Source: Candidatus Parcubacteria bacterium (GTDB lineage: Bacteria; Patescibacteriota; Patescibacteriia; Patescibacteriales; UBA12075). Taken from it: a stretch of 64,000 nt of DNA. The stretch's first letter is position 1. Each line of letters opens with the position of its first letter. The position numbers were made by a program, and so were the translations under genes. The stretch spans positions 3,315 through 67,314 of the forward strand of contig JAGLJW010000022.1 in the NCBI GenBank assembly GCA_023142215.1. Direction: 5' to 3'. Below, piece after piece: positions 1,422 to 46,462 of the stretch. Under the pieces are notes generated by a model. That model searched no databases. It saw only the letters and a program-made list of their open reading frames with translations, and was not told the DNA's origin.

Positions 1422-2156
1422 TTATTTTTCAGCGTAAATTAATAATGATCCTGAAATTTCTTTAACAATAGGAATTTTTTCCAAAAATATTAATGGAACC
1501 CCTAATATATCAACTAATAAACTAGGCATAATAGGATGTAAAAAATCAAAATTAATTACTTTTATATTTTTATATCCTAATTTTCTTAAAACTTTTTCCA
1601 ATCGCCATCGGAAAAAAGCTATTTCATCAGGCGAGTCACCCATCATCTTTTTTAACCATGGTATATTTTTTTGCAATGCTATTTGAGGATTCATCATATT
1701 TGGCTCCGTAAAAAATATTGACCCACCCACAATTAATTTATTGTATGATCTTTCTAAACATTTTTCATAATCAACATGATGCAAAACAGAGTTTCCTACC
1801 ACATTTGAAAAATAATTATTTGGCAAATTATCTAAAGTCTCCATATCCCCAATTTCTAATTTTACATTATGAAATTTTTTCAAATTGTTTTTTGCAATTT
1901 CCAATAAATGTGGTGACAAATCAATAGCTGTGATGCCTGCTTTTGTATTAGCTAAATTCTTTGTAAACTCCCCAGTGCCACATCCTAGTTCTAAAACCAT
2001 ACTATCTTCTGTTATTTTTCCCATTTCAACCATTAAATCAATTCTCCTTTTCACTCTAAATTTTCCCGCTTTCCCTGAATGTCCCCAAACCTTCTCAGCA
2101 TTTGATGATATTTTTTCTCCGTGCTTAATTTCATTTAATTTTCTTTCATTGTTCAT
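1422..2156 (-). CDS. Class I SAM-dependent methyltransferase
   Basis: 244-aa ORF with motif I VLELGCGTGEFT and a Methyltransf_11/25-like layout. Confidence 0.8.
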   Translation of the reverse strand: MNNERKLNEIKHGEKISSNAEKVWGHSGKAGKFRVKRRIDLMVEMGKITEDSMVLELGCGTGEFTKNLANTKAGITAIDLSPHLLEIAKNNLKKFHNVKLEIGDMETLDNLPNNYFSNVVGNSVLHHVDYEKCLERSYNKLIVGGSIFFTEPNMMNPQIALQKNIPWLKKMMGDSPDEIAFFRWRLEKVLRKLGYKNIKVINFDFLHPIMPSLLVDILGVPLIFLEKIPIVKEISGSLLIYAEK

Positions 2157-2161
2157 ATTTT

Positions 2162-3892: not shown

Positions 3893-3898
3893 AATAAA

Positions 3899-5383
3899 CT
3901 AAATAAACTTTATTTTTTTAATAGCAAATACTAACATTTTTAATAATATCCATCCATGTCTAAACCTAGATATATTAGTATCACCATAATCTCTAGCTTT
4001 ATATTTAATTGGAATTTCAATAAATTTTAAACTTAATTTTGAAGATCCGAATATTAAATCAAAATCACCAAAAGGATCAAATTCTCCAAAATATTTTCTA
4101 TTAGCTATTAATTTTTTATAATTGTTTTTTGAAATAACTTTTGTTCCACACAATGTATCTTTTATTCTCTGTCCAAGAAGCCAACTAAACATCAAAGAAA
4201 AAAACTTATTACCAATCATGTTTAAAGTTCTCATAGCCTCATCCTCCATTGGATAAACCAATCTAGATCCATTTATGTATTCTCCTTTTCCTGAGGCAAT
4301 TGCATTATAAAATTTAGGAAGATCCTCTGGCGGAACAGTCAAATCAGCATCTAATATCATAAGAATATCGCCATTAGCCATTTCAAAACCCTTTCTAACA
4401 GCATCCCCTTTACCTTTTCCGTCCTGTTTTGCATATTTGATATCGTAAACACTCTTATATTTTTCATAAACTCTCTTTATCTCCCCATATGTATCATCCC
4501 TTGAGTGACCTTCTATAAAAATTATCTCAATGTGTTTTCCAAAATTAGGCATCCTCTTTACAGCATTTTCTATATTTCCTTTTTCATTGCGAGCTGGGAT
4601 AATTATACTAGTTGAATATTCATTTTTGTCCTCATTGTTTTGTCTTGCTATTATATATCCCGTAAGACAAAAACTATTAATTATCGGCAACTGTGCTATA
4701 AATTTATTTATAAAATTTGAAATCAAAAAAATCTTTTTAGGAAACAAAAACCTTTTACCCTTCTTAATAACATCGTAATTTTCTATATACAGCAAATTAT
4801 TTACATCCCCACCATTCAACCAATTTAATCTTTTTTGTGGCATCTTTAAATTTAATTTTTCCGCTAATTTTAAAAATGGCGACCAAATAAAATTATGATA
4901 TGTTATTATTATTCTAGTGGATGGTTTTGAAACTTTTTTCAATTCTTGAAAAACTTTTTGTATATCCTCAAAATATCCTAATGTATCGGAAATAATAATA
5001 TAATCAAATTTTTCATCCAAAGTAATGTTTTCTGCATCCATTTGATAAAATTTTATATCTGGATAATGATTTTTAGCAATTTCTATCATTTTACTAGAAA
5101 TATCAATCCCCACTCCATGCTTTGGAGACAATTTATTCAATAAATAACCATCACCACAACCAATCTCTAAAATCTTGCTATTATTTAAAATATTATATTT
5201 AAAAAATTTAATTAAATCTTTATAATAATATTTGTTTTTATTTACAAATTTTATTCTATTTAAAGCAATTTTATCACTATGCTTCATTACTTCTTGTTTA
5301 TTCTTTGAAACCTTAAATTGTTTTGAATTGTTTTCACTATTGTTTAATTCCATAAAAGTCAAAATAAAATAATTTATTATCAA
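3899..5383 (-). CDS. Fusion protein: N-terminal SAM methyltransferase plus C-terminal GT2 (dolichyl-phosphate-sugar synthase-like) glycosyltransferase
   Basis: Methyltransferase motif ILEIGCGDGYLL. GT2 motifs IIIPARNEKGNIE and ILDADLT (DxD). The start is uncertain: the Met at 5353 (MELNNSE) would reduce the overlap with the upstream gene. Confidence 0.75.
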   Translation of the reverse strand: MIINYFILTFMELNNSENNSKQFKVSKNKQEVMKHSDKIALNRIKFVNKNKYYYKDLIKFFKYNILNNSKILEIGCGDGYLLNKLSPKHGVGIDISSKMIEIAKNHYPDIKFYQMDAENITLDEKFDYIIISDTLGYFEDIQKVFQELKKVSKPSTRIIITYHNFIWSPFLKLAEKLNLKMPQKRLNWLNGGDVNNLLYIENYDVIKKGKRFLFPKKIFLISNFINKFIAQLPIINSFCLTGYIIARQNNEDKNEYSTSIIIPARNEKGNIENAVKRMPNFGKHIEIIFIEGHSRDDTYGEIKRVYEKYKSVYDIKYAKQDGKGKGDAVRKGFEMANGDILMILDADLTVPPEDLPKFYNAIASGKGEYINGSRLVYPMEDEAMRTLNMIGNKFFSLMFSWLLGQRIKDTLCGTKVISKNNYKKLIANRKYFGEFDPFGDFDLIFGSSKLSLKFIEIPIKYKARDYGDTNISRFRHGWILLKMLVFAIKKIKFI

Positions 5384-6059
5384 TATTACAATTTATTTTA
5401 TCAATAAGACAGCTTTCTCCGAATACTGTTATTGAAAACCCTAAATCTTTTAATAACTTAAAATATTTTTCGGGATTCACACCTGCCTTGTTTAATCCAT
5501 ATGGCCAAAACTCTCCCATCATACTAACCTTTTTTAACTTATTTAAAATATTACTCATTCCCTTAACCGCATAATAGTCATATCCTTGAATATCAATTTT
5601 AACAAAATCAACTCTTTTTATTTTTAAATAATCATCAATTGAGATACACTGAACCTCTGTATAAAATCTGTTCTCACCACTATCGTAAGTTTGATGATCC
5701 ACATTTAAACTATTTGATTTATAAAGTTTTACATTTTTCGTTTCACTACCAACAGCCTTATTTAATAAAATCACATTACTTAATTTTTTTGTATTATTTT
5801 TTAATCTATTAAAATTTTCAATATCTGGTTCAAAAGCATATACTCTCCCATTCTTGCCAACTAATTTTGAGAATAAAATCGTATAAAAACCAATATTTGC
5901 ACCTATATCTAATACAACCATATCTGATTTGACATCTCTCTTTAATAATTTTATTTTGTCTCTATCACTAATTTCCTTATAAAAAAAATATAACGGTCTA
6001 TAGGCAATATAAAAATATTTAAATAATAAATTTCCCAATCTCAAAAAAAATAATTTCAT
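5337..6059 (-). CDS. FkbM-family methyltransferase
   Basis: 240 aa with VLDIGANIGFYT and YAFEP, typical of the FkbM family. Confidence 0.7.
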   Translation of the reverse strand: MKLFFLRLGNLLFKYFYIAYRPLYFFYKEISDRDKIKLLKRDVKSDMVVLDIGANIGFYTILFSKLVGKNGRVYAFEPDIENFNRLKNNTKKLSNVILLNKAVGSETKNVKLYKSNSLNVDHQTYDSGENRFYTEVQCISIDDYLKIKRVDFVKIDIQGYDYYAVKGMSNILNKLKKVSMMGEFWPYGLNKAGVNPEKYFKLLKDLGFSITVFGESCLIDKINCNIDNKLFYFDFYGIKQ

Positions 6060-7213
6060 AAATTTGTTTTATTTTCAATAAAATTAATTATACTTTTTGC
6101 CCTGCTCTCCCATGTAAATTTCTTTATTGCTTCATGAGCATTATATGCCATACTATTTGATAGATCTCTATCATCAATGACTCTTTCAACTCCTTTCAAT
6201 AAGCTTTGACTATCATCAGGTTTCACGAAAATACATTCATCATCTCCTGCTAGCTCTCTTATTGAAACTAAGTCACTCGCAATCATTGGTCTTTTACTTG
6301 CCATATACTCAAATACTTTCATTGGCGACATGAAATAATTATAATGATCGCCTGCGGGAAAAGGAGCAATAACCATATCAAAAGCCTTTAAATATTTTGG
6401 TATCACTGAATTTTTCATCCAGCCAACAAAAATAATTTTATCACTAACTCTTTCGCTATCAGCATATTTTTTATAATAATCAATATCTTCCTTATTTCCA
6501 CCAACCAAAACCAATTTATATTTTTCATCCAATTGCTTCATTGCCTGAATAGCCACATCAATCCCTTTTTCCATACCCATCGTTTTCAACATCCCAACAT
6601 ACCCAATTAAAATTTTGTTCTGCGGAAGCTTTAATTCTTTTCTAGCTTCTTCTTTCGTAATATCCAAATCAAATTTGGCAATATCTACACCGTTAGGATG
6701 AGATAATATTTTATCACTTTTTATATTAAATTTTTTCTCCAATTCAGTCTTTTTCCATTTATTCGTAGTTATAATACCACGCAATTTTTCAAATAACTGA
6801 CTAAATAACGATAATTTACTTCTTGGAAAATCATGCATATCAAAAAAAGAATTTTTCCTTATTTGACTAACAAAAAACATTAAATTTGCTTCATGTGATA
6901 AGATAATATCATCTTTTTTTGTAAATAACAATAAATAAATTAATAAAAAGAATAAATATGTATAAGTTTGAACCAAAAATGAAAATTTTCCCAACCGTAG
7001 CGGCATTATATCCAAACAAGGTAAAGTAATAATTGGAAATTCTTTTTCAGTACCGTAGAAACTAAACGGATTCTTTTTTATTTTATTAAATCTAAACGAT
7101 TTAATAATACACACATCAGCAAAATCACTTAAAGCACTACTAATTTTCATAGATTCTAATCCTTCTGCCTTTTCATTCGGAAATCGTGAATTTATAATAT
7201 AATAAATTTTCAT
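6056..7213 (-). CDS. GT4 (GT-B fold) glycosyltransferase
   Basis: 385 aa with a C-terminal EX7E-type motif, SPMKVFEYMASKRPMIASD. Confidence 0.75.
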   Translation of the reverse strand: MKIYYIINSRFPNEKAEGLESMKISSALSDFADVCIIKSFRFNKIKKNPFSFYGTEKEFPIITLPCLDIMPLRLGKFSFLVQTYTYLFFLLIYLLLFTKKDDIILSHEANLMFFVSQIRKNSFFDMHDFPRSKLSLFSQLFEKLRGIITTNKWKKTELEKKFNIKSDKILSHPNGVDIAKFDLDITKEEARKELKLPQNKILIGYVGMLKTMGMEKGIDVAIQAMKQLDEKYKLVLVGGNKEDIDYYKKYADSERVSDKIIFVGWMKNSVIPKYLKAFDMVIAPFPAGDHYNYFMSPMKVFEYMASKRPMIASDLVSIRELAGDDECIFVKPDDSQSLLKGVERVIDDRDLSNSMAYNAHEAIKKFTWESRAKSIINFIENKTNL

Positions 7214-7267
7214 AAAATTAAAATTATTTTTTCTTTAAACAAAGCAAATTAACTTAAGATAACATAT

Positions 7268-8011
7268 CTACTTTTCTCCAATTATTAAAAATCTAGCTGC
7301 TAAAAGTGTTGGCCAAGTTTTTTTTATAAAATCCCTAGAATCCTTAAAAAATGATTTTTTCCAAAATTCACCAAGGCTCTCTGATAATAATTCAGGCTCA
7401 ACTTGTACATTCTTAAAACCAGCCAAATCAAATGTTTCATATAAATTTTCTCTATTAAACATAGTTTTATGTCCCAAATTATACGGTCTTGGCGGATTAA
7501 ATCCTATTCTATCTTCATTATTAAAATGAGAAATTTTTCCCATCATTATTTCCATTCGGTATCTATAAAAAACAAAATTTGGAACCGTCGCTATACATCT
7601 TCCGCCCTTATTTAGTAAAGGATAAATTCTATCCTTTAAGACTATTATCGGATCAATTAAATGTTCTAAAACATCAGTCACAATTACAACATCAAAAGGA
7701 CCTAACACTTTTACTTCTTCTATGTCATCAATTTCAAAATTTAAATTAAATACTTTCAAATCTTTTTCTTTGCATATCGCCAATGCATCATCTGAAACAT
7801 CTACTCCGATTACATTGTTATTATTTTCCCTAATAGGCAACAAACATTTTCCAGTTCCACAACCAATATCAAGAACTTTTTTACCAGTACCAACAATGTT
7901 TGCAATTCCCACACCAAACTTATTACCTTCAGAATATTCCCCTTTTCCCGTTTTTAGAAATGAAGACCAGCCACTTTTGTATATATCTTTTATTACATCT
8001 TTTTTTGTCAT
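7268..8011 (-). CDS. Class I SAM-dependent methyltransferase
   Basis: Motif I VLDIGCGTGKC and post-I VIGVDVS. Confidence 0.8.
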   Translation of the reverse strand: MTKKDVIKDIYKSGWSSFLKTGKGEYSEGNKFGVGIANIVGTGKKVLDIGCGTGKCLLPIRENNNNVIGVDVSDDALAICKEKDLKVFNLNFEIDDIEEVKVLGPFDVVIVTDVLEHLIDPIIVLKDRIYPLLNKGGRCIATVPNFVFYRYRMEIMMGKISHFNNEDRIGFNPPRPYNLGHKTMFNRENLYETFDLAGFKNVQVEPELLSESLGEFWKKSFFKDSRDFIKKTWPTLLAARFLIIGEK

Positions 8012-8032
8012 ATTTTTAATTTTTATTATTAT

Positions 8033-8075
8033 GGGTCTGTCGCCAAACTACAGTTTTGGCATAAATTTTCAAGAT
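8033..8075 (-). repeat. Family-B intergenic motif, copy A (plus-strand core CTGTCGCCAAACTACAGTTTTGGCATAAATTTTCA)
   Basis: Near-identical to the copy at 54116-54160 and related to the copy at 31217-31260. It lies about 22 nt upstream of the start codon at 8011, in the same orientation relative to the downstream gene as the other copies. Confidence 0.6.
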
Positions 8076-8099
8076 TATTAATACATAATTAAGTTTAAA

Positions 8100-8741
8100 C
8101 TATTTCTCTTTAAGTAAAACCACAAACGATAAAGCAAATAAACCTGGAAAATATTTTGTTAGCATTTTCAAAAACTTTCCTATCATAATCTTATTTTCCC
8201 AAAAAGTATTCATTTTTAGCTCAACAATCTCTAGATTACAATTCTCAAACATCTTCATTAAATTTACATAATTGAACCAATAAACATGCCCCTTGTTAGG
8301 TCTATTATTTTCTGGAACATATCCCTTTAAAACCTGTAATCTTGCTGGCAATGAATTGAAGTTTGGGACACTAATAATTACATTTTGAGAAACTTTAGAT
8401 GCGTCTTTCAAAACTTTTTCTGGAAAAAATAAATGCTCAAGATTATCTAAAATAGTCACATACTCAAATTTATCAATTTGAAATTTGTCCACCCCTTCTC
8501 TTAAATCACCTAATACTACATTTAAATTTTTTTTTCTGCACTTCTCAACAGCCTTATCAGAAAAATCAATTCCATACCCTTCAATTCCCTTTTTTTTTAA
8601 TTTAGACAACAAATAACCATCTCCACACCCAAGATCTAAAACTTTTCCATCTTTTATCATTTCAAGTGTGGCTGAATGTCTAAATTGCATGTTCTGACTG
8701 CCACCAGACCATCTTTCATTTTCAAACTCTTTTTGACTCAT
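8100..8741 (-). CDS. Class I SAM-dependent methyltransferase (MetW-like size)
   Basis: Motif I VLDLGCGDGYLL and GIDFS. Confidence 0.8.
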   Translation of the reverse strand: MSQKEFENERWSGGSQNMQFRHSATLEMIKDGKVLDLGCGDGYLLSKLKKKGIEGYGIDFSDKAVEKCRKKNLNVVLGDLREGVDKFQIDKFEYVTILDNLEHLFFPEKVLKDASKVSQNVIISVPNFNSLPARLQVLKGYVPENNRPNKGHVYWFNYVNLMKMFENCNLEIVELKMNTFWENKIMIGKFLKMLTKYFPGLFALSFVVLLKEK

Positions 8742-9453
8742 TTTTTTTTGCTTTAATTATTACATAATCACCGAATATCCCAAACAAATGTTTTATAACT
8801 GGAATATAATTTATTCCCTCTTCTAATAGACAAATTGGTTTATATATTGCAAAGTTGACTTTTTTAAAATATCTACTAAAAAAGCCTTCATAATATATCT
8901 TTGTAATCTTCAAATTATTCTTTTTTAATGTTCTCAGTATATGTAAAAAAGAAAAAGAAAATTCTATACCATCAGGTGTAGGTTTAATTGATTTATTTTG
9001 CAACAAAAGACGAATAGAAATCGGTTCATAAAAAACAATAGATCCATTAGACTTTGTAACTCTTGAAGCTTCGGACATTGCAAGTTCTGTATTATACACA
9101 TGATGCAACGATGCAAAAAACATTGAACAATCAAAATAATCATTATCAAAAGGTAATTTTTCCATATCACCTTCAGTACATACATCCTCTTTATTTCTTT
9201 CATCAAGAACAGCTCTAGATATATCCAAGGCATAAATATTTGTTGTTATATTTTCTTCTCTTAAAATATTTGTCCAATTTCCTGCACCACCACCAATATC
9301 AAGAACCTTCTCATCACGACCAAATAACACTTTACATCTTTTTCTAAATAAATAAGTCTTCATAATTTTTGTTGGTTGCGACTTATACTTCTCTCCTTCT
9401 TTTGCTATCTTGTACTTTTCTATATTTAATTTTTTTGTATCAACTTTATCCAT
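8722..9453 (-). CDS. Class I SAM-dependent methyltransferase (type 11)
   Basis: VLDIGGGAGNWT and ALDIS. I trimmed the ORF-track start (9531) to the Met at 9453 (MDKVDTKKL), because the longer form overlaps the upstream GT4 gene by 73 nt. Confidence 0.7.
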   Translation of the reverse strand: MDKVDTKKLNIEKYKIAKEGEKYKSQPTKIMKTYLFRKRCKVLFGRDEKVLDIGGGAGNWTNILREENITTNIYALDISRAVLDERNKEDVCTEGDMEKLPFDNDYFDCSMFFASLHHVYNTELAMSEASRVTKSNGSIVFYEPISIRLLLQNKSIKPTPDGIEFSFSFLHILRTLKKNNLKITKIYYEGFFSRYFKKVNFAIYKPICLLEEGINYIPVIKHLFGIFGDYVIIKAKKNESKRV

Positions 9454-9458
9454 AAAAA

Positions 9459-10508
9459 TTATTCGGATATATTTACTATTTTTTTTATCAAACCAGGAAG
9501 ACTGTGATCTGTCTGAATCATCCTCCTCCAATCAACACCTAGCTCCTTCTTTTTATCACTATTCAAATTAAAAATTCCAGATATTTTTTTTGCCAATTCA
9601 ACACTATTCTTCTTTTCAAAATACAACATCTCTCTATAATCAAATAATAAATCTTCCATTAACGCCTCATTACATGTAACCACAGGAAGACCACAAGCCA
9701 TAGCCTCTAAACCAGCCTTATCTAAACTTCCTGTATGACTCAAATTTACAAATACTTCAGACGATTGCAAATACTCAACTATAGTATTATTTGATTTTGG
9801 ACCAAGAAAATTAACTATATAATTCAAATCATTTTCCTTGACATACTTCTTTAAATAACTATAATATCCTTCATCTTCTTCATTCAGTGGTCCACCAATT
9901 ATATCAAGCGAAAATTCTAAATAATCTTTTCTAATTATTTGAATTGCCTCAATTAAGGTTACATAATCTTTTACAGCAGAAATTCTTCCAGTCGTAATTA
10001 TTTTTCTTTTTTTTGGAATATTAGTAGCTTTAAAATAATCTACATCAATTCCGTGCCCAACAACATTGATTTTTTTACTAGATAATCTAAAACTCTTTTT
10101 AGATGCAGTAAAAATTTCATGGACAAATTTTTCAGCTAGTCTTAAATAAATATTCACATTTTTATGTGTATACCAAAGACTAATTTTTTTACCCATCAAT
10201 CTCCACAACGGACCACCTAATACTACATATTCAGGATTCATATGAACAAAAATCGCATCATAATCATTTTTCAATTTCCATATATATTTATAAAAAATTA
10301 AAATATACTTCAATCTCTTATTTCCCATCTCTTTTCCCAAGCTCAATACTTCAACATTATCAGAAAAATTGTATCTTCCCTTTTTCAAGCAAACTACTTT
10401 CACACTCTCACAATGATTTGAAAATTCGTTAATCCATCCATGAAAAAATCCCAAATCATCACCATCAATATTTACTTCCTGCGTAATAATTAATAATTTT
10501 TTTGACAT
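9459..10508 (-). CDS. GT4 glycosyltransferase
   Basis: 349 aa with GSLDKAGLEAMACGLPVVT, an EX7E-like GT-B C-terminal motif. Confidence 0.75.
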   Translation of the reverse strand: MSKKLLIITQEVNIDGDDLGFFHGWINEFSNHCESVKVVCLKKGRYNFSDNVEVLSLGKEMGNKRLKYILIFYKYIWKLKNDYDAIFVHMNPEYVVLGGPLWRLMGKKISLWYTHKNVNIYLRLAEKFVHEIFTASKKSFRLSSKKINVVGHGIDVDYFKATNIPKKRKIITTGRISAVKDYVTLIEAIQIIRKDYLEFSLDIIGGPLNEEDEGYYSYLKKYVKENDLNYIVNFLGPKSNNTIVEYLQSSEVFVNLSHTGSLDKAGLEAMACGLPVVTCNEALMEDLLFDYREMLYFEKKNSVELAKKISGIFNLNSDKKKELGVDWRRMIQTDHSLPGLIKKIVNISE

Positions 10509-10517
10509 ATACTAATA

Positions 10518-11564
10518 TTAAATCAAGCTTTTCAACTTTTCATATTTCTCATCAGATTTTTTAAAATAAGTCATCGCCCAATCTTTCTGCTCTTCTGTAA
10601 GTTTACTATTATTTTCAATCACCTCTCTCAATTCATTTTCATTAAATCCTGAAATAAATTTTGGTTTTTCATTAAAAATATGGTTATACAATCTTTCAAA
10701 TTTCACTATGCTATAAATAGATTTCATTATTCCACCATCAGTCGCTCCCTCCTTACAAACATTAATTTTTTCAAGTGAGTTTTTTATAAATTCTTTGCCA
10801 TACCTTAATAACAAGATTCTGCCTATACTCATTGCATCAAAACCAAAAACATAATCATTATCAGGATAAGTTTTTACATTAAAACCAGAAAGTAATAATT
10901 TTTCATTCGCAAAATCTGCAGTATCATAAGCTTTTTGTATTTTTGAGCTAGGTGGAAAAATTTTATATTCTGACTCTACACCAGTTGGTGACTCCAATTT
11001 AATTCTATTATCTAAAAATATTTTTCTATTAAAAATTATTGAATAAGAACCCATGGGCAAATATTCCTTGTCTTTAATTTTAAATTTCCACCAATAACGA
11101 GGAGACAAAGACACAACAGCAGTTTTGTCATTCTGAAATTTATCTAAAAAAGGAATAACATCTTTAAGCAAGTACTTATCATCATCACATAAATAAACAA
11201 TATCAGAATTTACATATTTCCTAATAAGATAATCTACTTTTTTACCATGATAAAAGTTCATAAATTTAATGTAATCACTTCCTTCAAACTTCTTCCTATC
11301 CATATCACCAATTGAATCAACTATTAAAAAATTCCATTTATCCTTATCTAAATTTTTCTGAACAAAATATAACCAAACTCTAGCATAATCCTCCGAAATA
11401 GAACAAGTCATTATTGTTGGCTTATTATTGTTTTTCTTATTTTTACCTAACAATACTCTCAAACTTGGTAAAACTACTTTTGGTGAACTATAAAAATAAT
11501 TAAACCATTTCACTGCCCTGGGAGCAATTATCCAAAAAGGTAAATCTTTTTTGTTTGTAAACAT
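10518..11564 (-). CDS. Hypothetical protein, possible GT-A-like glycosyltransferase
   Basis: 348-aa ORF tightly packed between GT4 genes. It has an acidic LCDDDKY (DXD-like) motif. I recognise no other signature. Confidence 0.3.
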   Translation of the reverse strand: MFTNKKDLPFWIIAPRAVKWFNYFYSSPKVVLPSLRVLLGKNKKNNNKPTIMTCSISEDYARVWLYFVQKNLDKDKWNFLIVDSIGDMDRKKFEGSDYIKFMNFYHGKKVDYLIRKYVNSDIVYLCDDDKYLLKDVIPFLDKFQNDKTAVVSLSPRYWWKFKIKDKEYLPMGSYSIIFNRKIFLDNRIKLESPTGVESEYKIFPPSSKIQKAYDTADFANEKLLLSGFNVKTYPDNDYVFGFDAMSIGRILLLRYGKEFIKNSLEKINVCKEGATDGGIMKSIYSIVKFERLYNHIFNEKPKFISGFNENELREVIENNSKLTEEQKDWAMTYFKKSDEKYEKLKSLI

Positions 11565-35610: not shown

Positions 35611-36399
35611 ATGGTATTTGGCAACAATCTCAAGACAATGGCTTATAAATCATTAATAATAAAATTAAAAAATCACACTAAAATATTGTGTGATTTTTTA
35701 ACTGATATTTTATTTCCGATTACTTGTATAGAGTGTAATAAAAAGAATGTTTGGTTTTGTGATAGTTGTTTTAATAAATTAAAACTAAATCTTAATCAAA
35801 AATGTTTAATCTGTAATCGTAAAAGTGAATATGGAAAAATTTGTAAGTCACATAAAAAATATTTAACAGGAGTTTTAATAGCTAGTGAATACAAAAACAA
35901 AACTTTAAGAAATATAATTAAAACATTTAAATATAATTTTATTACTGATCTCCGTTATCCACTCTCAAAATTTCTTTCCATCTTCTTGCTTCACCAAATC
36001 AGAAAAACCGAAATAGACAATACTTCCCCATTAAATTTTTTATTAGAAAAAGATACAATTTTTATCCCAATTCCTCTTCATAAAAAACGCCTACGGTGGC
36101 GACAATTCAATCAAGCTGAATTATTACTAAATATGTTTACAAATCATTTACCAATAAACACTAATACTGAAAATTTAATCAGAATTAAATATCAAAAACC
36201 ACAAGCCAAACTTAAAAAACATAAAAGACAGCAAAATATTAAAAATAGCTTTTTGTGGAATGGAGAAAATTTAAAAGATAAAACTATCATTTTAATTGAT
36301 GATGTAGTTACGTCTGGATCAACATTGGAAGAATGTGCAAAAATTTTAAAAAATAATAATGCTAAAAAAATTTGGGGATTGGTTTTGGCTAAAGGTTAA
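35611..36399 (+). CDS. comFC: ComF-family phosphoribosyltransferase-domain competence protein
   Basis: N-terminal Cys4 (CIECNKK...CDSCFNKL) and C-terminal PRTase motif IILIDDVVTSGSTLEE. Confidence 0.8.
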   Translation: MVFGNNLKTMAYKSLIIKLKNHTKILCDFLTDILFPITCIECNKKNVWFCDSCFNKLKLNLNQKCLICNRKSEYGKICKSHKKYLTGVLIASEYKNKTLRNIIKTFKYNFITDLRYPLSKFLSIFLLHQIRKTEIDNTSPLNFLLEKDTIFIPIPLHKKRLRWRQFNQAELLLNMFTNHLPINTNTENLIRIKYQKPQAKLKKHKRQQNIKNSFLWNGENLKDKTIILIDDVVTSGSTLEECAKILKNNNAKKIWGLVLAKG

Positions 36400-36538: not shown

Positions 36539-36706
36539 AAGGATTGAGAGTTGATTAAAGTTTTACGGGAATAGAGTTTAGAGCTGATGAGTATAGTTTT
36601 GCTTCTTACTTAAAGAATTAAAACCATACTCACCAACAAAAAACTCTATACACAAACCCAAACAAAACTTCAACCAACACAAACACTCAATCCTTTTTTC
36701 TTTTTT
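36539..36706 (+). ncRNA. Candidate structured sRNA: rod-like imperfect hairpin of about 155 nt plus U-tract (6S-RNA-like architecture)
   Basis: Hand-folded helices: 36539-48/36686-95 (10 bp), 36558-64/36664-70 (7 bp), 36567-69/36657-59, 36571-79/36641-49 (9 bp), and 36589-600/36620-31 (11 of 12). An internal loop lies at 36580-88/36632-40. The apical stem is TTCTT/AAGAA. TTTTTTCTTTTTT follows. Confidence 0.35.
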
Positions 36707-37547: not shown

Positions 37548-37823
37548 GTAACTGCTCACTGACCTTAAGGTGTCATTCCCCGATCAAGTCAAGGACAGGC
37601 TCTGAGCGATAGCCAAAGGATCCCGATAATTATGCAACATTGCATCAACAACGGGATTCTTCAACTACACTGCGTTTCGTTCAGAATGACAATTTCCTGT
37701 GTCATCCTGGAGCTAGAGCGATAGGATCCCATAAATTACGCGACATTGTATAATCAATAAAATTCTATCACTACGCATTCGCTCCGTTCCAGAATGACAC
37801 CTTTGCAGTCAGTGAGGAGTTAC
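37548..37823. mobile_element. Non-autonomous MITE-like element (276 bp) with 16-bp terminal inverted repeats and an 8-bp target-site duplication
   Basis: TIRs: GTAACTGCTCACTGAC (37548-63) and GTCAGTGAGGAGTTAC (37808-23), matching 15 of 16. AATTTTTA flanks both ends directly (37540-47 and 37824-31). The interior has four GTCAT(T/C)C...GAT(A/C)C-type units in alternating orientation and is visibly GC-richer than the flanks. Confidence 0.6.
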
Positions 37824-38043: not shown

Positions 38044-38289
38044 TTATAATTTTTTCTTAATGTCTTCCCAAGTTACTTGAGTAATTGTCTCAATTTCTTT
38101 TAAAAGATATTTTAAAACATTTTTACTAATTTTACCTTGTATGACTATTGATTTTTGATTCTTTTCAAATGTAGCTTTTATATGACTTCCCTTGCCTCCC
38201 TTTTTACTAACACTAAAACCCAAACTAGTTAATGCCTTAACTAGTTTATCCCTATTTAATTCACTTGGTAATTCACTAAACGATGGCAT
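38044..38289 (-). CDS. hicA: HicA-family (YcfA-like) mRNA interferase toxin
   Basis: From the Met at 38289: MPSFSELPSELNRDKLVKALTSLGFSVSKKGGKGSHIKATF, which fits the LVKAL..GF...GSH pattern. The ORF-track N-terminal extension overlaps the antitoxin and is probably not translated. Confidence 0.6.
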   Translation of the reverse strand: MPSFSELPSELNRDKLVKALTSLGFSVSKKGGKGSHIKATFEKNQKSIVIQGKISKNVLKYLLKEIETITQVTWEDIKKKL

Positions 38290-38593
38290 ACTGATGTTGC
38301 ACTTGCCCAACCTTATGCAAACCTGCCATCTTTTTATAAGAAGATGGCACTTCAAAGGATGTTAAAATAGCATCTTCTATATTTTTATCTAATTCTTCTT
38401 GAGTTTTAGCAGATGTAATAATTGAACCATGTCTAAAATTTGTACTAATAGCAATTATTTCACCGTCCTCCTTTTTAAATTCAAAATTAATAGGCTCATT
38501 AAACCTAAAATATTTTTTTAATTCCAAGTACTCAACAGGAACAGAATTACCGTTCAGCAATTTCACCAAATGATCTTTTACTTGTTTTAACAT
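38276..38593 (-). CDS. hicB: HicB-like antitoxin (UPF0150-type N-terminal domain only)
   Basis: ISTNFRHGSIITSAKTQEELDKNIEDAILTSFE fits the HicB G..t.G.T.eEa..n..eAi pattern. It has a 14-nt overlap with hicA. No RHH/HTH tail is visible. Confidence 0.5.
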   Translation of the reverse strand: MLKQVKDHLVKLLNGNSVPVEYLELKKYFRFNEPINFEFKKEDGEIIAISTNFRHGSIITSAKTQEELDKNIEDAILTSFEVPSSYKKMAGLHKVGQVQHQYAIV

Positions 38594-38842
38594 ATTATTT
38601 AATATTAACTATATTGAATTAATACTTTAATACACATCTTATTGTATGTCAATATTATAACACAAATAGAACAAAAGATAAAAATTGTAAGTGTGGATAT
38701 ATAAATGAAATAGATTTAATAAAACAACCACAAAAATGTATTGATAAAATAGATATTAAAAAAAACGCCTATGAAAAACAAAATAAAATCTGATATAAGG
38801 CGGTTTAAAAAATTTCAAAGCATGGTAACAGATAAAAATAAC

Positions 38843-38869
38843 AATATCGACGTGAATGACGTCGATATT
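38843..38869 (-). terminator. Perfect 11-bp inverted repeat (AATATCGACGT-GAATG-ACGTCGATATT), possible terminator of the KAP operon
   Basis: Read directly. On the minus strand it is followed by GTTATTTTTATC. It lies about 400 nt downstream of the last operon gene. Confidence 0.3.
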
Positions 38870-39264
38870 AGAAACTATGCTAAAATTTTTATTAAAAGAG
38901 GAAGAAATTGAAAAAAAAGAAAATTGCTTAATTGTTTGAATGGTAAAATATTGCTTGAAAACAAAAATATCCAAATTAAAAAAAATTAAAAAGGAATATT
39001 TTCTACTTTAATTTCTTCCACATCGTTTTTATCTTCATCTTCACAATCTTCATAATCATCAACATCTTCATTAGTTATTTCAGCCGAATATCTATTAATT
39101 GCTTCTTTGTATAGTTCTATCAACCTCTCTTTTGAATCGTCCTTTATCACTTAAAAATTGGTCAAATTTATTGTATATATTTTCATATATTATCTAAATA
39201 TATGCAAATTTAAATAGATTGGTTTCACAAATCACAATATGTTGATATTGATTAATTGTTAATA

Positions 39265-40026
39265 CTAACGGTTAGCTTTTCCAACGAAATTTGTAAATTT
39301 TCTACTTTCAACTAAAACAGGCATATCCTCCAATTTTTCCAATAATGCACCTTTTAAACAATAACCTGAACCAAATAAATTTGTATCACACCAATGCGTT
39401 CTAGGATTTTGAATACGCTCTCTATGAACAACTTCTGGCACCCAATTTGTATTTATCCATCCATGTCTTAATAACGCCAAAGTAAGATCTTCAGACTCAT
39501 CATAAGCAACAATTAACAAAAAAAGAGCTGACAAACTTTTTAGTATATTATAAAAATTGGCATCTTTATAATTATCTAGTCTATTATGTTTAAGTTTATT
39601 ATAAACAGTCCACCATTCTTCTTTTTCTCTATAATCTTTATACGGTGTTATTATACAATTTGGATAAACAGAATAGATATATAAAATAACCTGATATTTC
39701 TCTAATTCTAATTGATTAAAAATATTCAATTCAAAATCGATTATATTTAATGATGTTATTTTTCTTTCAATTTGTTTGCCCTTTTCATCTAAAACTTTTG
39801 CCTTTCTTTTTATTCCAACTTTTCCTTGTCCTAAAATATATCTAGACATTGAATCTATTAAACCGCATATATCCAGAAATAAACTAACTAATTCTGGCGA
39901 CCAAACGTTTTTATTAATTTCATTATATGGTATTACTTTTAAAAAATTCAAAAGCCTTTCTTCAAAATCATTATAACTTGAAAAAACAAATTCTATATCT
40001 TCTGGCTTCCAAAGTTTTTTACGCAT
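39265..40026 (-). CDS. Hypothetical protein (third gene of the KAP-NTPase operon)
   Basis: 253-aa ORF lying 42 nt downstream of the 106-aa gene. It has a conspicuous EEWWTVYNKLKHNRLDNYKDANFYNILKSLSALFLL block, which I cannot assign to a family with confidence. Confidence 0.55.
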   Translation of the reverse strand: MRKKLWKPEDIEFVFSSYNDFEERLLNFLKVIPYNEINKNVWSPELVSLFLDICGLIDSMSRYILGQGKVGIKRKAKVLDEKGKQIERKITSLNIIDFELNIFNQLELEKYQVILYIYSVYPNCIITPYKDYREKEEWWTVYNKLKHNRLDNYKDANFYNILKSLSALFLLIVAYDESEDLTLALLRHGWINTNWVPEVVHRERIQNPRTHWCDTNLFGSGYCLKGALLEKLEDMPVLVESRKFTNFVGKANR

Positions 40027-40068
40027 ACTACTTTTTACTTTTAATTATTATATAAACAATTACTATAA

Positions 40069-40389
40069 CTATTCTTCTCTTACTGCAATAAATTTTCTTA
40101 AACTATCTGTCGAATAACACACTTTGCCCATAATTTTTAGCCCGTCAGAATCTAACACTATTTCATTTATAAAGCTATTGTCTTTTGAGTACATACTATC
40201 AATACTATTAATCATGTTATCTAGACGAAATTGTTCAAATAGTTTGGTGGTATTTTCGACATCTATATTAAACATTCCTAGAAATGTCCTACTAATATAG
40301 ACCTCTAACTTACCATCATCAACCAGAAACAAAAGCTTAAAACCATCTCGCCCTGGCTCAGTTATATCTTTTATAAATTCGATTTTCAT
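40069..40389 (-). CDS. Hypothetical small protein (second gene of the KAP-NTPase operon)
   Basis: 106-aa ORF lying 8 nt downstream of the KAP gene. No motif recognised. Confidence 0.5.
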   Translation of the reverse strand: MKIEFIKDITEPGRDGFKLLFLVDDGKLEVYISRTFLGMFNIDVENTTKLFEQFRLDNMINSIDSMYSKDNSFINEIVLDSDGLKIMGKVCYSTDSLRKFIAVREE

Positions 40390-40397
40390 ATTTTTAT

Positions 40398-41615
40398 TTA
40401 AAAAATATTTATATCTAAATACTGATTAGGAATCATACACATGTCACTAAAAACTAAAGGCAAAATACTATCATCATGTTTTTCAAAATAGAAAGAATTC
40501 GGTGGAGACTGTTTTTTTTTAATACTGTTTAAACCTATCATGTACAAAACACTTTTTTCCCACGCTAAATCAGTACTTAAACTAATCTTATTATTCATGT
40601 TTACAATGTAACGATCGCTTCTATCAAGTTGACCCTCATGTTTTAAAAATTCCAAAAAAGAAAAGACTAAAAACACCCTTATGTCAAATTTACTTCTTTT
40701 TTCATCATCAAAATTATTAAACGCCAAATTAGCATTCCTTATTACATGTTTTATATCTCTAATAGTTAAATGATATTTTTTAGCAACATATTGCAATATA
40801 AAATTAATATGCTTACACCAATTTGAATCTTTTTGTTGACAAAAAAATGATTCATCAAATAGTTGTTCAATAAAATTAATAAAATCAACATCATTCAAAG
40901 TCAATATTTTTGAAAAATCTAATACTTTTCTATATGAGGCACTGGCATTTTCATTAATATAATTATCTTTTGCTATTGGAATAATTGCATGAACAATTCT
41001 ACCTTCAAAATTATTTTCTGATAAAAAATATTTTAAAGTTTCCAAAAAGAAAATTCCTTTGTCACCTGACCTATCAATATCCTCAACTATAAAATATATT
41101 TTCTTATATTTTTTATCAATTTCATTTATTAAATATTTAAATATTTCTTGTACTTCGAAAACTCTTTTTGCTGGAGATTTTTTAAATATATAAACAAATT
41201 TATCGACGACATTTATTCCCTCCAAATTATCAGATATTCCAGAAAGTACATCTGTGGCTAAATCAAATATTTTTGATTTTATTTCTTTACCATCAATTTT
41301 TTTCACAATAGCTTTATGCTTTCCAAATTTTTGAGCCACTTCCAAAATAAATCCTTCCCATAACTCATTCCTTTCAGGAAATTTCCAAGCATCAAAATTA
41401 ATCCAAAGTTCATCGGCTTTTGCCTTATTTGCAATATTATCAAGCAAAGTACTTTTACCACAACCGAAATCACCTATCAATCCAAAAATGCTATTTCTAT
41501 CAACATTATCAATCTTTTCTTTAAGATCTATACGAGCAACCGAAAAATCTAACAAATCATTAACCTTGTATGTCTCTTCTAATAAATCTAAATTTTTTAT
41601 AAAACCATTCTGCAT
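40398..41615 (-). CDS. KAP-family P-loop NTPase (no transmembrane insert)
   Basis: Walker A GLIGDFGCGKSTLLDNI, then the KAP-typical INFDAWKFPERNELWEGFILEV, then Walker B IYFIVEDIDR. Confidence 0.75.
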   Translation of the reverse strand: MQNGFIKNLDLLEETYKVNDLLDFSVARIDLKEKIDNVDRNSIFGLIGDFGCGKSTLLDNIANKAKADELWINFDAWKFPERNELWEGFILEVAQKFGKHKAIVKKIDGKEIKSKIFDLATDVLSGISDNLEGINVVDKFVYIFKKSPAKRVFEVQEIFKYLINEIDKKYKKIYFIVEDIDRSGDKGIFFLETLKYFLSENNFEGRIVHAIIPIAKDNYINENASASYRKVLDFSKILTLNDVDFINFIEQLFDESFFCQQKDSNWCKHINFILQYVAKKYHLTIRDIKHVIRNANLAFNNFDDEKRSKFDIRVFLVFSFLEFLKHEGQLDRSDRYIVNMNNKISLSTDLAWEKSVLYMIGLNSIKKKQSPPNSFYFEKHDDSILPLVFSDMCMIPNQYLDINIF

Positions 41616-41628
41616 TTTTTCACTTTTA

Positions 41629-41650
41629 GTGTATTATACAAGTATAACAC
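41629..41650 (-). promoter_or_regulatory. Candidate promoter/operator of the KAP operon
   Basis: The minus strand reads GTGTTATACTTGTATAATACAC. This is a TATAAT -10 (plus-strand 41633-38) embedded in an imperfect palindrome (GTGTTATAC / GTATAA-ACAC), 17 nt upstream of the ATG at 41615. Confidence 0.35.
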
Positions 41651-41720: not shown

Positions 41721-42176
41721 TTAATCATTTTTCTCCTCAACAATCTCCAACCTTTCAATCCCATGCTCATCCAATTCTTCCCAATACTTTTCAAGAAAGG
41801 GGTGATCTTTTTCTATTCTTTCCTTAATATCCATTTTTTCAATTTCTTTACAACTATAAGCTCTATAAAAATCACGCATAGCTAAACGACTAGCAAGTTC
41901 TTCCGAAAGAGTGTCGTTATCATAATAATCAATAAAATCCATAACATCACCCTCTTCTAATTCAAGTGAAGGATAAATTTCTTTACCATCCTCATCAACA
42001 TATTTTTCCATTCCAAATTTTTTAGCAAAAGAAAAAATATATTTTTCTAAATCTTTATATTCTTTTATTTGCTCATCTCCTTTTGCATCAGACCTCACAC
42101 CATTAACTACCCAATTGCCAATATATGACATTTTTATTAAAACTTCAAATTGTTTTTTTGTAAAATTAATTTTCAT
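41721..42176 (-). CDS. Hypothetical acidic protein
   Basis: 151-aa ORF lying 5 nt downstream of dinD. No motif recognised. Confidence 0.5.
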   Translation of the reverse strand: MKINFTKKQFEVLIKMSYIGNWVVNGVRSDAKGDEQIKEYKDLEKYIFSFAKKFGMEKYVDEDGKEIYPSLELEEGDVMDFIDYYDNDTLSEELASRLAMRDFYRAYSCKEIEKMDIKERIEKDHPFLEKYWEELDEHGIERLEIVEEKND

Positions 42177-42181
42177 ATTTT

Positions 42182-43024
42182 TTATTTCTTAATCTTCTTA
42201 TCACTCTTTAAACTTTTCTTCTCCTCACTTTTGAGTTTTCTTTCAACCTTCTTCACATCTTCATTTGGAAATAAATCTTCCGGAACAATATCACGAGAAA
42301 TTAAAGTTTTTCTTACTGTTTTATTATTTATAATATGCTCTTTTGAAATCTCACTCTCAGTCTCTATCTCTTTGTTCTTGACATTAAAAATAGTAATCTC
42401 TGTTGCAAAATCTTTTGCTTTAAGCAAAATTGTAGGCATAAAATCAGCTAAAGGTTTATTATTCTTAATATCCCATCTACCCTTCATCTGTCTAGTTGTC
42501 TTGTTAAATAAAGCCTTATCACCCTTACTACGAATAATTGCAAAATTTTCATTCCCACTAGTCTGCTCAAAAATAACTTGAGAAAGTTCTTTCTCTGTCT
42601 CTGCTAACTTATATCTTGATTGAACCCTCTCAACTTCCAACAATCTCTGCTCTATAATTTCCGCTTTTCTAGTTTGAACTGCAAAATAAGTTTGAGCAAA
42701 AGCAATTTCTTCTTTCTTACTATCTCCATTTTGTGCAATCAAATAACAGGCATATCTTGAAAGCATTAAATCATCTATATCTTTTTGTGCAGTCTTAGGC
42801 ATTTCTATCGTTTTGTTAACGTCAACAAAATGATCAGATATAGTTTGTTTAGATATCTCACATGCTACTTTAGCTTTATTTACAACTTTCAAAAAGTTTC
42901 TCCATTCTGTATAGCCCAATAAATATTGTAAATCTCTTGCTAACCAAAATTCAACACCATCATCAGTTTTATGCGCAAAAGATTCAAAGTTTCCTGTTAA
43001 TGATTGTATAAATTTTCTTTCCAT
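42182..43024 (-). CDS. dinD: DNA-damage-inducible protein D homolog
   Basis: FWLARDLQYLLGYTEWRNFLKVVNKAKVACE resembles E. coli DinD (WSARQLGKLLGYSEYRHFIPVLTRAKEACE, as I recall it). Confidence 0.7.
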   Translation of the reverse strand: MERKFIQSLTGNFESFAHKTDDGVEFWLARDLQYLLGYTEWRNFLKVVNKAKVACEISKQTISDHFVDVNKTIEMPKTAQKDIDDLMLSRYACYLIAQNGDSKKEEIAFAQTYFAVQTRKAEIIEQRLLEVERVQSRYKLAETEKELSQVIFEQTSGNENFAIIRSKGDKALFNKTTRQMKGRWDIKNNKPLADFMPTILLKAKDFATEITIFNVKNKEIETESEISKEHIINNKTVRKTLISRDIVPEDLFPNEDVKKVERKLKSEEKKSLKSDKKIKK

Positions 43025-43157: not shown

Positions 43158-43183
43158 AATTAAAAACATAAACATAATCAACT

Positions 43184-43209
43184 AAAAAACTCCCTTTCGG
43201 AAGTTTTTT
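43184..43209 (-). terminator. Intrinsic terminator after the tRNA-Ser pair
   Basis: The minus strand reads AAAAAA-CTTCC-GAAA-GGGAG-TTTTTT: a 5-bp stem with one G-U pair, a GAAA tetraloop and a U-tract. Confidence 0.55.
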
Positions 43210-43215
43210 AATATG

Positions 43216-43302
43216 CGGAGAGAGAGGGATTCGAACCCTCGAGGAGCGTTAACCCCTACATCCTTAGCAGGGATGCGCTTTCAACCACTCAGCCATCTCT
43301 CC
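43216..43302 (-). tRNA. tRNA-Ser (anticodon GCU)
   Basis: Hand-folded. Acceptor GGAGAGA/TCTCTCC, anticodon stem CATCC/GGATG with loop CTGCTAA, long variable arm, T-arm GAGGG-TTCGAAT-CCCTC. Confidence 0.9.
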
Positions 43303-43324
43303 AATGGTTAAATTTATATCAATG

Positions 43325-43411
43325 CGGAGAGAGTGGGATTCGAACCCACGGTAGGCTTACACCCACAACGGTTTTCAAGACCGTCGCCTTCAACCGCTCA
43401 GCCATCTCTCC
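43325..43411 (-). tRNA. tRNA-Ser (anticodon UGA)
   Basis: Hand-folded. Acceptor GGAGAGA/TCTCTCC, anticodon stem ACGGT/ACCGT with loop CTTGAAA, long variable arm, T-arm GTGGG-TTCGAAT-CCCAC. Confidence 0.9.
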
Positions 43412-46241: not shown

Positions 46242-46306
46242 GACATAATCAAAGTATCATCATGGAGCCGACAGATTTTAAAACAAAGCGAATGCTACAC
46301 CCCACT

Positions 46307-46462
46307 GTCATTCTGGAACGAAGCGAATGCGTAGTGATAGAATCTCGTTGATTACGCAACCTTGCATAATTCATAAGATCCTATCGCTCTAGCTCCAGGA
46401 TGACAATATGTATTTGTATTGCGTAATTCATAGGATCCTATCGCTCTAGCTCCAGGATGACA
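46307..46462. repeat. REP/BIME-like mosaic of the same units found inside the MITE
   Basis: 46307-46404 is an inverted, highly similar copy of 37701-37798 (GTCATTCTGGAACGAAGCGAATGCGTAGTGATAGAAT...GATCCTATCGCTCTAGCTCCAGGATGAC). A further GGATCCTATCGCTCTAGCTCCAGGATGACA unit lies at 46433-46462. It fills the convergent recG/radA spacer. Confidence 0.65.

Follow-up and report, generated by a model that had tools for sequence, protein, structure and literature searches.

The KAP-family NTPase gene, the 106-aa ORF and the 253-aa gene that lie in tandem in a Candidatus Parcubacteria genome are probably a chance grouping and not one system: a KAP gene of a kind usually found with restriction-modification (R-M) genes, an orphan small gene and a widespread, unannotated, independently moving gene stand side by side. 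In the reading that we favour, with a probability of about 60%, the locus would be an accessory patch of around 5.7 kb composed of independent, individually mobile genes of the defence-island type, rather than a dedicated three-gene system. This patch would lie between housekeeping genes and two tRNA-Ser genes. Its features are listed below by their positions in the window, that is, the whole stretch of 64,000 nt that was analysed.

38044..38593, minus strand: two overlapping ORFs that close the patch at its far end, encoding a marginal HicA-like protein and, upstream, a 105-aa protein (Pfam)
38842..38870, minus strand: terminator-like hairpin downstream of the 54-aa ORF, the first such site past the 253-aa gene
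38986..39150, minus strand: very acidic 54-aa ORF without family match
39265..40026, minus strand: 253-aa member of a large, unannotated stand-alone family, termed fam253 (cluster search, AF2)
39266..40044, minus strand: the 253-aa gene plus 18 nt upstream, the sole DNA segment common to the window and the closest relative, L016 (blastn)
40069..40389, minus strand: orphan 106-aa ORF, acidic, pI 4.75 (self-hit only; ORF length)
40398..41615, minus strand: short KAP-family P-loop NTPase of 405 aa without transmembrane (TM) segment (Pfam KAP_NTPase, 40.9 bits)
41629..41650, minus strand: TATAAT within an imperfect palindrome (9-bp stem, one bulge), 17 nt upstream of the KAP start codon (read from the sequence)
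41721..42176, minus strand: acidic 151-aa ORF without family match, starting 5 nt past dinD and 105 nt upstream of the KAP gene
42182..43024, minus strand: DinD homolog with Bro-N domain (NCBIfam DinD, 353.8 bits; Pfam Bro-N)
43181..43212, minus strand: terminator-like hairpin just downstream of tRNA-Ser, the upstream limit of a co-directional run of six genes
43215..43411, minus strand: two tandem tRNA-Ser genes (GCT, TGA), border of the accessory patch (ARAGORN, Rfam)

An earlier, sequence-only reading had proposed the trio as the operon of a candidate novel defence module. The ORF sizes (405, 106 and 253 aa) and spacing on which it was built were borne out, the three genes being co-directional on the minus strand with gaps of 8 nt between the KAP and 106-aa genes and of 42 nt between the 106-aa and 253-aa genes. 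A terminator scan returned no terminator-like site between the three. Co-transcription of the trio with the dinD, 151-aa and 54-aa ORFs may well occur, and it would reflect the tight packing of genes in this genome, not a conserved functional unit. With regard to the promoter with which the operon had also been credited, the TATAAT and its palindrome do exist, but they are not statistically notable: TATAAT occurs at 2.9 per kb in the window, the promoter scan did not flag the site at 41629-41650, and promoter-like sites were not enriched (29 found versus 31.9 expected in shuffles). The palindrome is a possible candidate for a promoter or operator.

The proposal of a conserved three-gene system failed on co-occurrence, since the trio does not appear together in other genomes. 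Among the approximately 100 loci carrying relatives of the 253-aa protein, any KAP gene was found nearby in only four independent ones (the window, L129, L075 and L082/L096), and KAP subfamily, gene order and orientation differ in each. For the close 253-aa family, the five further independent loci were all devoid of KAP genes, and among about 60 other loci with a short KAP a single one contained a fam253 gene. In the comparison with PADLOC (v2.0) that had been suggested as a check, no two proteins of the trio matched one named system; the KAP protein gave weak P-loop matches only, and the 106-aa and 253-aa proteins gave none.

The same four adjacencies could speak for a loose sensor-effector pair: the effector-less KAP would be the one to detect infection and would thereupon license the 253-aa protein, acting as an enzyme in trans, while the 106-aa protein would serve as an adaptor or inhibitor particular to this lineage. 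We regard this arrangement as improbable. A modular, repeatedly re-assembled pairing would account for the variation in gene order and KAP subtype, and it is in line with the missing effector domain of the KAP protein, with the tight spacing and lack of an internal terminator in the window, with locus L129, where fam253 precedes a short KAP by 41 nt in the same orientation, and with the order fam253, 4-TM protein, classical KAP in L075. In addition, KAP_NTPase heads the census of fam253 neighbours as the commonest Pfam family at the ±1 and ±2 positions (3 of 279 genes), and because KAP genes are rare, some functional affinity is possible. Against the pair, TIR_2, HNH, AAA_21 and methylases appear beside fam253 almost as often, the other gene is missing in more than 95% of fam253 loci and in more than 95% of short-KAP loci, and the KAP-adjacent fam253 genes form no dedicated clade. 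Orientation is even divergent in L082, the two genes of L129 may simply share an hsdS-hsdR cargo slot that also holds Abi_C and DUF3800, and the nearest relative of the 253-aa gene of the window carries that gene alone.

The assignment of the 405-aa protein to the KAP NTPases was confirmed. Its match to Pfam KAP_NTPase (PF07693) spans residues 33-204 (cutoff, 20 bits), a domain also carried by most of its homologs, which amount to more than 175 clusters. The Walker A motif, the FDAW block, the DIDR Walker B motif and the lack of a TM segment had all been read correctly: in an alignment of 25 family members, the window protein included, GxGKST, FDAW and EDIDRS are invariant (G51, G53, K54, S55, T56, F74, D75, W77, E178, D179, I180, D181 and R182), and the maximal 19-residue Kyte-Doolittle score is 0.99. 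The AF2 model (pLDDT 84, pTM 0.79) shows an NTPase core, a lid made of helices and, at the C terminus, an alpha/beta module, with a low-confidence helical insert at residues 111-145 and no TM-like insert. In the fold search, which returned NTPase architectures only, the whole model aligned with ORC/Cdc6, NSF, RdrA and Avs3, and thus leaves no room for a separate effector domain; none was recognisable. The protein would therewith be a self-contained P-loop NTPase switch with intact binding and hydrolysis motifs, an ORC/STAND-like core and no enzymatic effector domain.

The short KAPs are a family of NTPases of about 400 aa that is recurrently embedded in Type I R-M operons in a PrrC-type layout. 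Their neighbours (138 in 53 loci) are dominated by R-M genes (Methylase_S, 7; HSDR_N, 5; ResIII, 5) and also include GmrSD, Mrr_cat and methylases. The KAP gene lies between hsdS and hsdR of a Type I system in L101, L107, L110, L124 and L129, and in the first four of these loci the order hsdM-hsdS-KAP-hsdR is repeated with gaps of at most 10 nt. The KAP gene of the window has no hsd genes alongside, its flanks being the 151-aa ORF with DinD on one side and the 106-aa ORF on the other. No short KAP was found in IMG/VR. A relaxed hmmsearch ruled out that the genes of about 250-270 aa tightly coupled to short KAPs are cryptic members of fam253.

PrrC is an anticodon nuclease of a Type Ic R-M operon, in which an ABC-type NTPase is joined to a HEPN anticodon-nuclease domain. 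In PrrC/EcoprrI, the NTPase is embedded in a Type I R-M operon (PMC3632139). The relatives of the window KAP share with it the insertion of a P-loop NTPase gene between hsdS and hsdR, which suggests an NTPase monitoring or backing up the R-M complex. The differences are that the family is KAP-type, that no nuclease domain was detected in it (no Pfam HEPN match and only NTPases in the fold search), and that the window copy resides outside any hsdS/hsdR slot.

As single genes, KAP NTPases conferred Walker-B-dependent phage resistance, the proteins tested being EF_KAP and three metagenomic KAPs (PMC12632615). The window KAP resembles these in having a KAP_NTPase domain whose Walker motifs are intact, a C-terminal region in which no known domain is present and a location among mobile or defence genes. 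EF_KAP has two N-terminal TM helices and an extra region of 322 aa (PMC12632615), and by this description the window protein is set apart from it as shorter (405 aa) and TM-less, its C-terminal half looking like an ORC/STAND-type lid and a small alpha/beta module rather than an added effector. Serine recombinases, the marker gene of that study (PMC12632615), are also present in the fam253-carrying loci L001 and L002. By analogy with PrrC and the phage-protective KAPs, the window KAP would most likely serve anti-phage immunity as a sensor or switch that depends on NTP.

TM helices within or flanking the NTPase domain are typical of many KAPs, although they are not universal. In Tmn, described by Gao et al. 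in 2020, and in the classical prokaryotic KAPs described by Aravind et al. in 2004, such helices reportedly interrupt the NTPase domain or are joined to it. The window KAP shares with these proteins the superfamily, Walker A, the F/Y-D/N-A-W block, the DExD-R Walker B motif and a sporadic distribution resembling that of horizontally transferred genes, and differs from them in being TM-less. Tmn was rejected as an identity, both a PADLOC match and a TM segment being absent. The likeness to QatA and PifA is weak and confined to the P-loop region, and the window KAP is much shorter than either. QatABCD was rejected on scores of 18.9 bits (PADLOC QatA) and 16.7 bits against a cutoff of 600 (NCBIfam QatA), with no QatB, QatC (QueC-like) or QatD (TatD) neighbours, and PifA on a PADLOC match of 20.2 bits covering only positions 41-193 of the 720 in the profile.

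The 253-aa protein belongs to a large group, with 9 close clusters and 1,923 representative clusters at E<=1e-3 (clusters at 50% identity). With the subgroup alignment A3, 394 hits were obtained among 185,579 GTDB species genomes, in both Bacteria and Archaea, together with 14 IMG/VR contigs; the close-family alignment A1 gave zero loci in either collection. Using tblastn, the protein had no match in phage GenBank records and only 4 weak ones in plasmids, and its AF2 model retrieved from BFVD a single uncharacterised phage homolog (a fragment). The window and L016 are 84% identical over 781 nt, with no homology beyond, and the restriction of homology to the 253-aa gene and 18 nt upstream points to a single-gene cassette. 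The neighbours of the close homologs are AIPR/GmrSD/methylase genes, serine recombinases, a Gp49-HTH toxin-antitoxin pair and Fic_N, KAP being absent. No conserved neighbour family emerged from 88 fam253 loci, the largest neighbour cluster comprising 6 loci at variable positions. The 253-aa gene would accordingly be pictured as a single-gene cassette that travels between variable regions rich in defence genes, in bacteria and archaea as well as in phages.

The WW-containing block highlighted in the sequence-only reading proved to be real: WW..YN.LKH.R is the most conserved part of the family, with W138 and W139 invariant and N143, K146 and H147 at 90% or more in 48 diverse members. Conserved residues of the 253-aa protein comprise E22, WSP42-44, D58-S59..R62, P128, W138-W139, Y142-N143, K146-H147 and R149. 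The guess of a HEPN-like or other nuclease attached to this block was left unconfirmed, as the Rx4-6H motif is absent, with no conserved Arg 4-6 residues before H147, and as Pfam HEPN matches (0 of 48 members) and a PDB fold match are lacking. Neither a PDB sequence-profile search with the 48 members (nothing at E<=10) nor Foldseek of the AF2 model against PDB (zero fold matches) revealed HEPN similarity, although small helical bundles are easily missed by such searches. None of the 48 members matched Pfam, nor did PADLOC return anything meaningful for them. The protein is mostly alpha-helical (pTM 0.82) and resembles HEPN-type Abi proteins (AbiD/F, AbiJ, AbiV, Abi_C) in being small, helical and stand-alone, in its patchy occurrence in defence-rich regions and in a conserved His/Arg/Lys block on a helix; it differs in that this block is N-x-x-K-H-x-R and not Rx4-6H, with Pfam HEPN/Abi matches in 0 of 48 members and no fold match. 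Judged by the motifs and folds of these families, a lytic-transglycosylase, MazG, HD, RES or ART-like identity seems unlikely for the conserved residues.

With its conserved residues (E, D/S..R and N..KH.R) carried on a helical scaffold, the 253-aa protein may, with low certainty, be an enzyme, and it could be an effector or toxin directed at nucleic acids. A further step would be to see in fam253 an immune effector or toxin of a new, single-gene type, with E...D/S..R...N-x-x-K-H-x-R as its catalytic site and wired in some lineages to effector-less KAPs, the window being one instance; we give this an outside chance. A short KAP without effector might need a partner in trans, which counts against the reading of independent cassettes.

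That the 106-aa and 253-aa proteins have no recognisable family was confirmed, neither giving a significant match in Pfam, NCBIfam, PHROGs or PADLOC. For the 106-aa protein, no homolog was found among 5.8 billion proteins (self-hit only), nor any tblastn match in the 168 fetched loci. An ORF of this length is unlikely to arise by chance, because only about 2 stop-free runs of 106 codons are expected in the whole shuffled window versus 68 observed; it is probably a real gene, and would be a lineage-specific orphan. Its pI of 4.75, compared to 8.18 for the 253-aa protein, and the 42-nt gap between the two could instead point to a toxin-antitoxin-like or toxin-immunity pair, with a basic 253-aa toxin, an acidic, rapidly swapped neutraliser and an unrelated KAP. 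Close homologs with a tightly linked, non-homologous small neighbour fit this idea (156 aa with a 5-nt gap in L002, 196 aa with a 1-nt gap in L005 and an overlapping 202 aa in L003). We nevertheless consider it quite improbable, given that these neighbours are dissimilar to each other and vary in position, that the cassette shared with L016 leaves out the 106-aa gene, that genes of this genome are generally tightly spaced, and that a tightly coupled same-strand neighbour is absent in 54 of the 88 fam253 loci. Like the other neighbour results for the fetched loci, this count is based on crude ORF calling (longest ORF, greedy selection) in contigs of which many are short.

With regard to the setting, the accessory, defence-island character of the patch was upheld. 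The predicted dinD was confirmed by its NCBIfam score, and its product matches the PADLOC single-gene defence candidate PDC-S13 (2.6e-111), while neighbours of the KAP relatives and of the 253-aa relatives include R-M, Abi, GmrSD, TIR and AIPR genes. The tandem tRNA genes were likewise recovered, as two tRNA-Ser, and the Rfam scan showed nothing but tRNAs. The hicBA pair stood in part: HicA_toxin scores marginally (26.5 bits against a cutoff of 27), whereas the 105-aa partner taken for HicB has zero Pfam matches. A repeat of about 100 nt with inverted copies around 8.6 kb away may be the element described as a MITE. A search for direct repeats of the 3' end of tRNA-Ser, which as att-like sites would delimit an integrated island, found none.

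A defence function of the locus is plausible, and for the KAP subfamily and fam253 this rests on their neighbourhoods. The genes might alternatively have no role in immunity and either derive from the cargo of a mobile element that has decayed or be accessory genes of this lineage with some other role, since serine recombinases and transposases lie near several loci and the neighbours of fam253 include housekeeping genes (adenosine deaminase, tRNA synthetase, glycosyltransferases). The chances of this are slim in view of how strongly the KAP family is associated with R-M, the richness of fam253 neighbourhoods in defence genes and the published anti-phage activity of KAPs (PMC12632615).

With the trio no longer taken for a system, a false lead is removed. 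A compact, TM-less KAP family that repeatedly occupies the hsdS-hsdR slot of Type I R-M operons, in the layout of PrrC, suggests that restriction systems may have a second type of NTPase as a guard. The most interesting item left is fam253, a widespread family of about 230-250 aa without Pfam or PADLOC annotation or solved-structure match. Its members also occur in CPR bacteria, which have reduced genomes and a poorly known repertoire of immune genes. If validated, the short-KAP family or fam253 could add a new entry to the catalogues of defence systems.

Neighbouring minus-strand genes for a KAP NTPase, a 106-aa protein and a 253-aa protein had been proposed, in a sequence-only reading, as a new defence or abortive-infection module. 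The three ORFs (NCBI tags KAI92_01970, 01975 and 01980; from a Candidatus Parcubacteria bacterium, ~29% G+C) matched the proposed coordinates and gaps exactly, with spacings of 8 nt (405/106 aa) and 42 nt (106/253 aa), and they lie within a stretch of six genes read in one direction (dinD, 151 aa, KAP, 106 aa, 253 aa, 54 aa).

40398-41615, minus strand: KAP NTPase ORF, 405 aa (ORF call and Pfam)
40069-40389, minus strand: 106-aa ORF (ORF call)
39265-40026, minus strand: 253-aa ORF (ORF call)
43181-43212 and 38842-38870: terminator-like hairpins bracketing the six-gene run, the sole such sites there

An ORF of 106 codons would seldom arise by chance at the composition of the window (~2 expected with the whole window shuffled vs 68 observed). 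The TATAAT within an imperfect palindrome upstream of the trio is present, but carries little weight as promoter evidence, since TATAAT occurs 2.9 times per kb in the window and promoter-like sites there were not enriched over shuffled sequence.

The trio was not a conserved unit in the compared genomes, and the three-gene operon is not supported as a novel system. Close relatives of the 253-aa protein formed nine clusters only, and no KAP gene was found near them on any of five contigs, with neighbours read from crude ORF calls on fetched contigs, many of them short.

Layouts of five close loci (relative of the 253-aa protein in square brackets)
L001: HTH, EcoRI-type methylase, AIPR, GmrSD/HNH, [252 aa], 141 aa; serine recombinase present
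L002: serine recombinases, 156 aa, [255 aa]
L003: [323 aa], 202 aa
L005: Gp49/HTH TA pair, 196 aa, [248 aa]
L016: 69 aa, [253 aa], Fic_N

The 106-aa protein matched only itself among 5.8 billion proteins and gave zero tblastn matches in all 168 fetched loci; the small neighbours in the close loci were unrelated to it and to one another. DNA common to the window and L016, which encodes the nearest relative (81% protein identity), runs from 39266 to 40044 only, i.e., the gene plus 18 nt (84% identity, 781 nt), and so restricted a match indicates that the 253-aa gene is an autonomous single-gene cassette. Large serine recombinases lie beside two of the five close loci (L001, 3-1604; L002, 1-2225), which fits their published use as markers of defence cargo (PMC12632615).

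The assignment of the 405-aa protein held up: Pfam KAP_NTPase scored 40.9 bits against a cutoff of 20, GxGKST (Walker A), FDAW and EDIDRS (Walker B) showed no variation among 25 aligned family members, and any hydrophobic segment, hence any TM segment, was lacking. Homologs of ~400 aa ("short KAP") formed >175 clusters in many phyla. Across the 59 short-KAP loci examined, the recurrent neighbours were HsdS directly before KAP (-1) and HsdR directly after it (+1), no more than 10 nt away; the hsdM-hsdS-KAP-hsdR layout was seen in L101, L107, L110 and L124 and partly in L100 and L108. Among 138 neighbours at +-1/+-2 (53 loci), the commonest Pfam families were Methylase_S (7), HSDR_N (5), ResIII (5) and SWI2_SNF2 (4), followed by N6_Mtase, N6_N4_Mtase, GmrSD, Mrr_cat, NYN and DUF3800. 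The hsd layout resembles that of PrrC, an earlier example of an NTPase whose gene lies inside a Type I R-M operon (reviewed in PMC3632139), whereas the window KAP differs in having no adjoining hsd genes. The AF2 model (pLDDT 84) aligned over its full length with ORC/Cdc6, NSF, RdrA and Avs3, by which the C-terminal half looks like a lid plus a small alpha/beta module rather than an added effector. A 2025 preprint (PMC12632615) demonstrated Walker-B-dependent phage resistance from single genes for KAP NTPases whose C-terminal regions are uncharacterised. The window KAP belongs to the already known defence-associated KAP NTPases, as an R-M-linked, TM-less subtype.

Other genes tightly coupled to short KAP were considered as cryptic relatives of the 253-aa protein and rejected, the neighbours being heterogeneous and outside that family. 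In L009 (6231-6671), a 146-aa gene 3 nt after short KAP, overlapping hsdS, carries an R-x4-H motif (RDAASH) and could encode a minimal HEPN. Contig L011 (ENA ctg5808_3x_l, 1499-11314) holds three paralogous short-KAP genes; interspersed among them are three genes for GmrSD, two dienelactone-hydrolase-like ones and a Type III R-M system, and the homolog list contained two more paralogs encoded on this contig.

The defence-island reading of the patch was reasonable. The DinD homolog (42182-43024) matched PDC-S13 (2.6e-111), which PADLOC lists as a single-gene candidate, and also a portion of a model for a Type I specificity subunit; an acidic 151-aa ORF without family match (41721-42176) begins 5 nt past it and could be its partner. 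The proposed hicBA (38044-38593) was a weak call, with HicA_toxin at 26.5 bits against a cutoff of 27 and no HicB match for the upstream 105-aa ORF; as listed, the two ORFs overlap by 80 nt. Downstream of the HicA-like gene, an intergenic ~100-nt repeat (37700-37799) without Rfam match has inverted copies directly after recG (46306-46405, 87%/100 nt; 46421-46462, 95%/42 nt), and may be what had been called a MITE. A perfect 23-nt inverted repeat (43310-43332/43405-43427) flanks tRNA-Ser(TGA), reaching ~12 nt past the acceptor-stem ends on both sides, and an intergenic hairpin (36571-36649; 37-nt arms, 78% complementary, 5-nt loop) follows the ORF at 35611-36399.

The large family around the 253-aa protein, fam253, adjoined a KAP-family NTPase at four independent loci. 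These are the window; L129 (hsdM, hsdS, Abi_C, fam253, short KAP, DUF3800, 164 aa, hsdR); L075 (fam253, a 4-TM protein, then classical KAP); and L082/L096 (classical KAP, divergent from fam253). KAP_NTPase was also the top Pfam family among its near neighbours (3/279 genes). A loose sensor-effector affinity would account for these adjacencies, but appears improbable: KAP subfamily, gene order, orientation and spacing differed at every locus, the KAP-adjacent genes fall inside a large subclade mostly without KAP, the window gene's own subclade is otherwise entirely without it, and in L129 both genes occupy one multi-gene cargo slot. We read the adjacency as co-residence in defence islands. The L129 slot (4529-8487) lies between hsdS and hsdR of a Type I R-M operon and holds five cargo genes, in effect a mini defence island within the operon; its KAP-DUF3800 pair recurs in L153 (78% identity). 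At the sequence level, the observation is confirmed and a conserved three-gene system is not supported.

The WW..YN.LKH.R block singled out in the 253-aa protein is real and forms the core of fam253, which comprised 1,923 clusters at E<=1e-3, 282 of them at E<=1e-10 (profile search, 1.84 billion representative proteins). Nearly all members are 220-260 aa long, and fam253 is therefore a stand-alone domain. In GTDB species genomes, a pattern scan picked up 394 relatives across phyla of Bacteria and Archaea, and 14 IMG/VR contigs carried members. No Pfam, meaningful PADLOC or PDB sequence match was obtained for 48 diverse members; Foldseek matched the mostly helical AlphaFold model (pTM 0.82) to nothing in the PDB and to a single BFVD entry, an uncharacterised phage homolog. 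Over 88 loci there was no conserved neighbour family (the biggest cluster spanned six loci, at variable positions), and 54 lacked a tightly coupled same-strand neighbour. Flanks in the Pfam and PADLOC censuses were heterogeneous and rich in defence and mobility families (N6_Mtase, Eco57I, Methylase_S, DpnI, TIR_2, AAA_21, HNH, AIPR, SLATT_4, bSEFIR, mad2/3, PDC candidates, an integrase), with housekeeping genes intermixed; annotated plasmid examples lie close to Abi, TIGR02391, DUF4238, IS and integrase genes. The conserved polar residues (E22; D58/S59/R62; N143/K146/H147/R149) suggest an enzyme, but fam253 lacks the Rx4-6H motif of HEPN proteins. fam253 is a sizeable unannotated family that merits follow-up in its own right.
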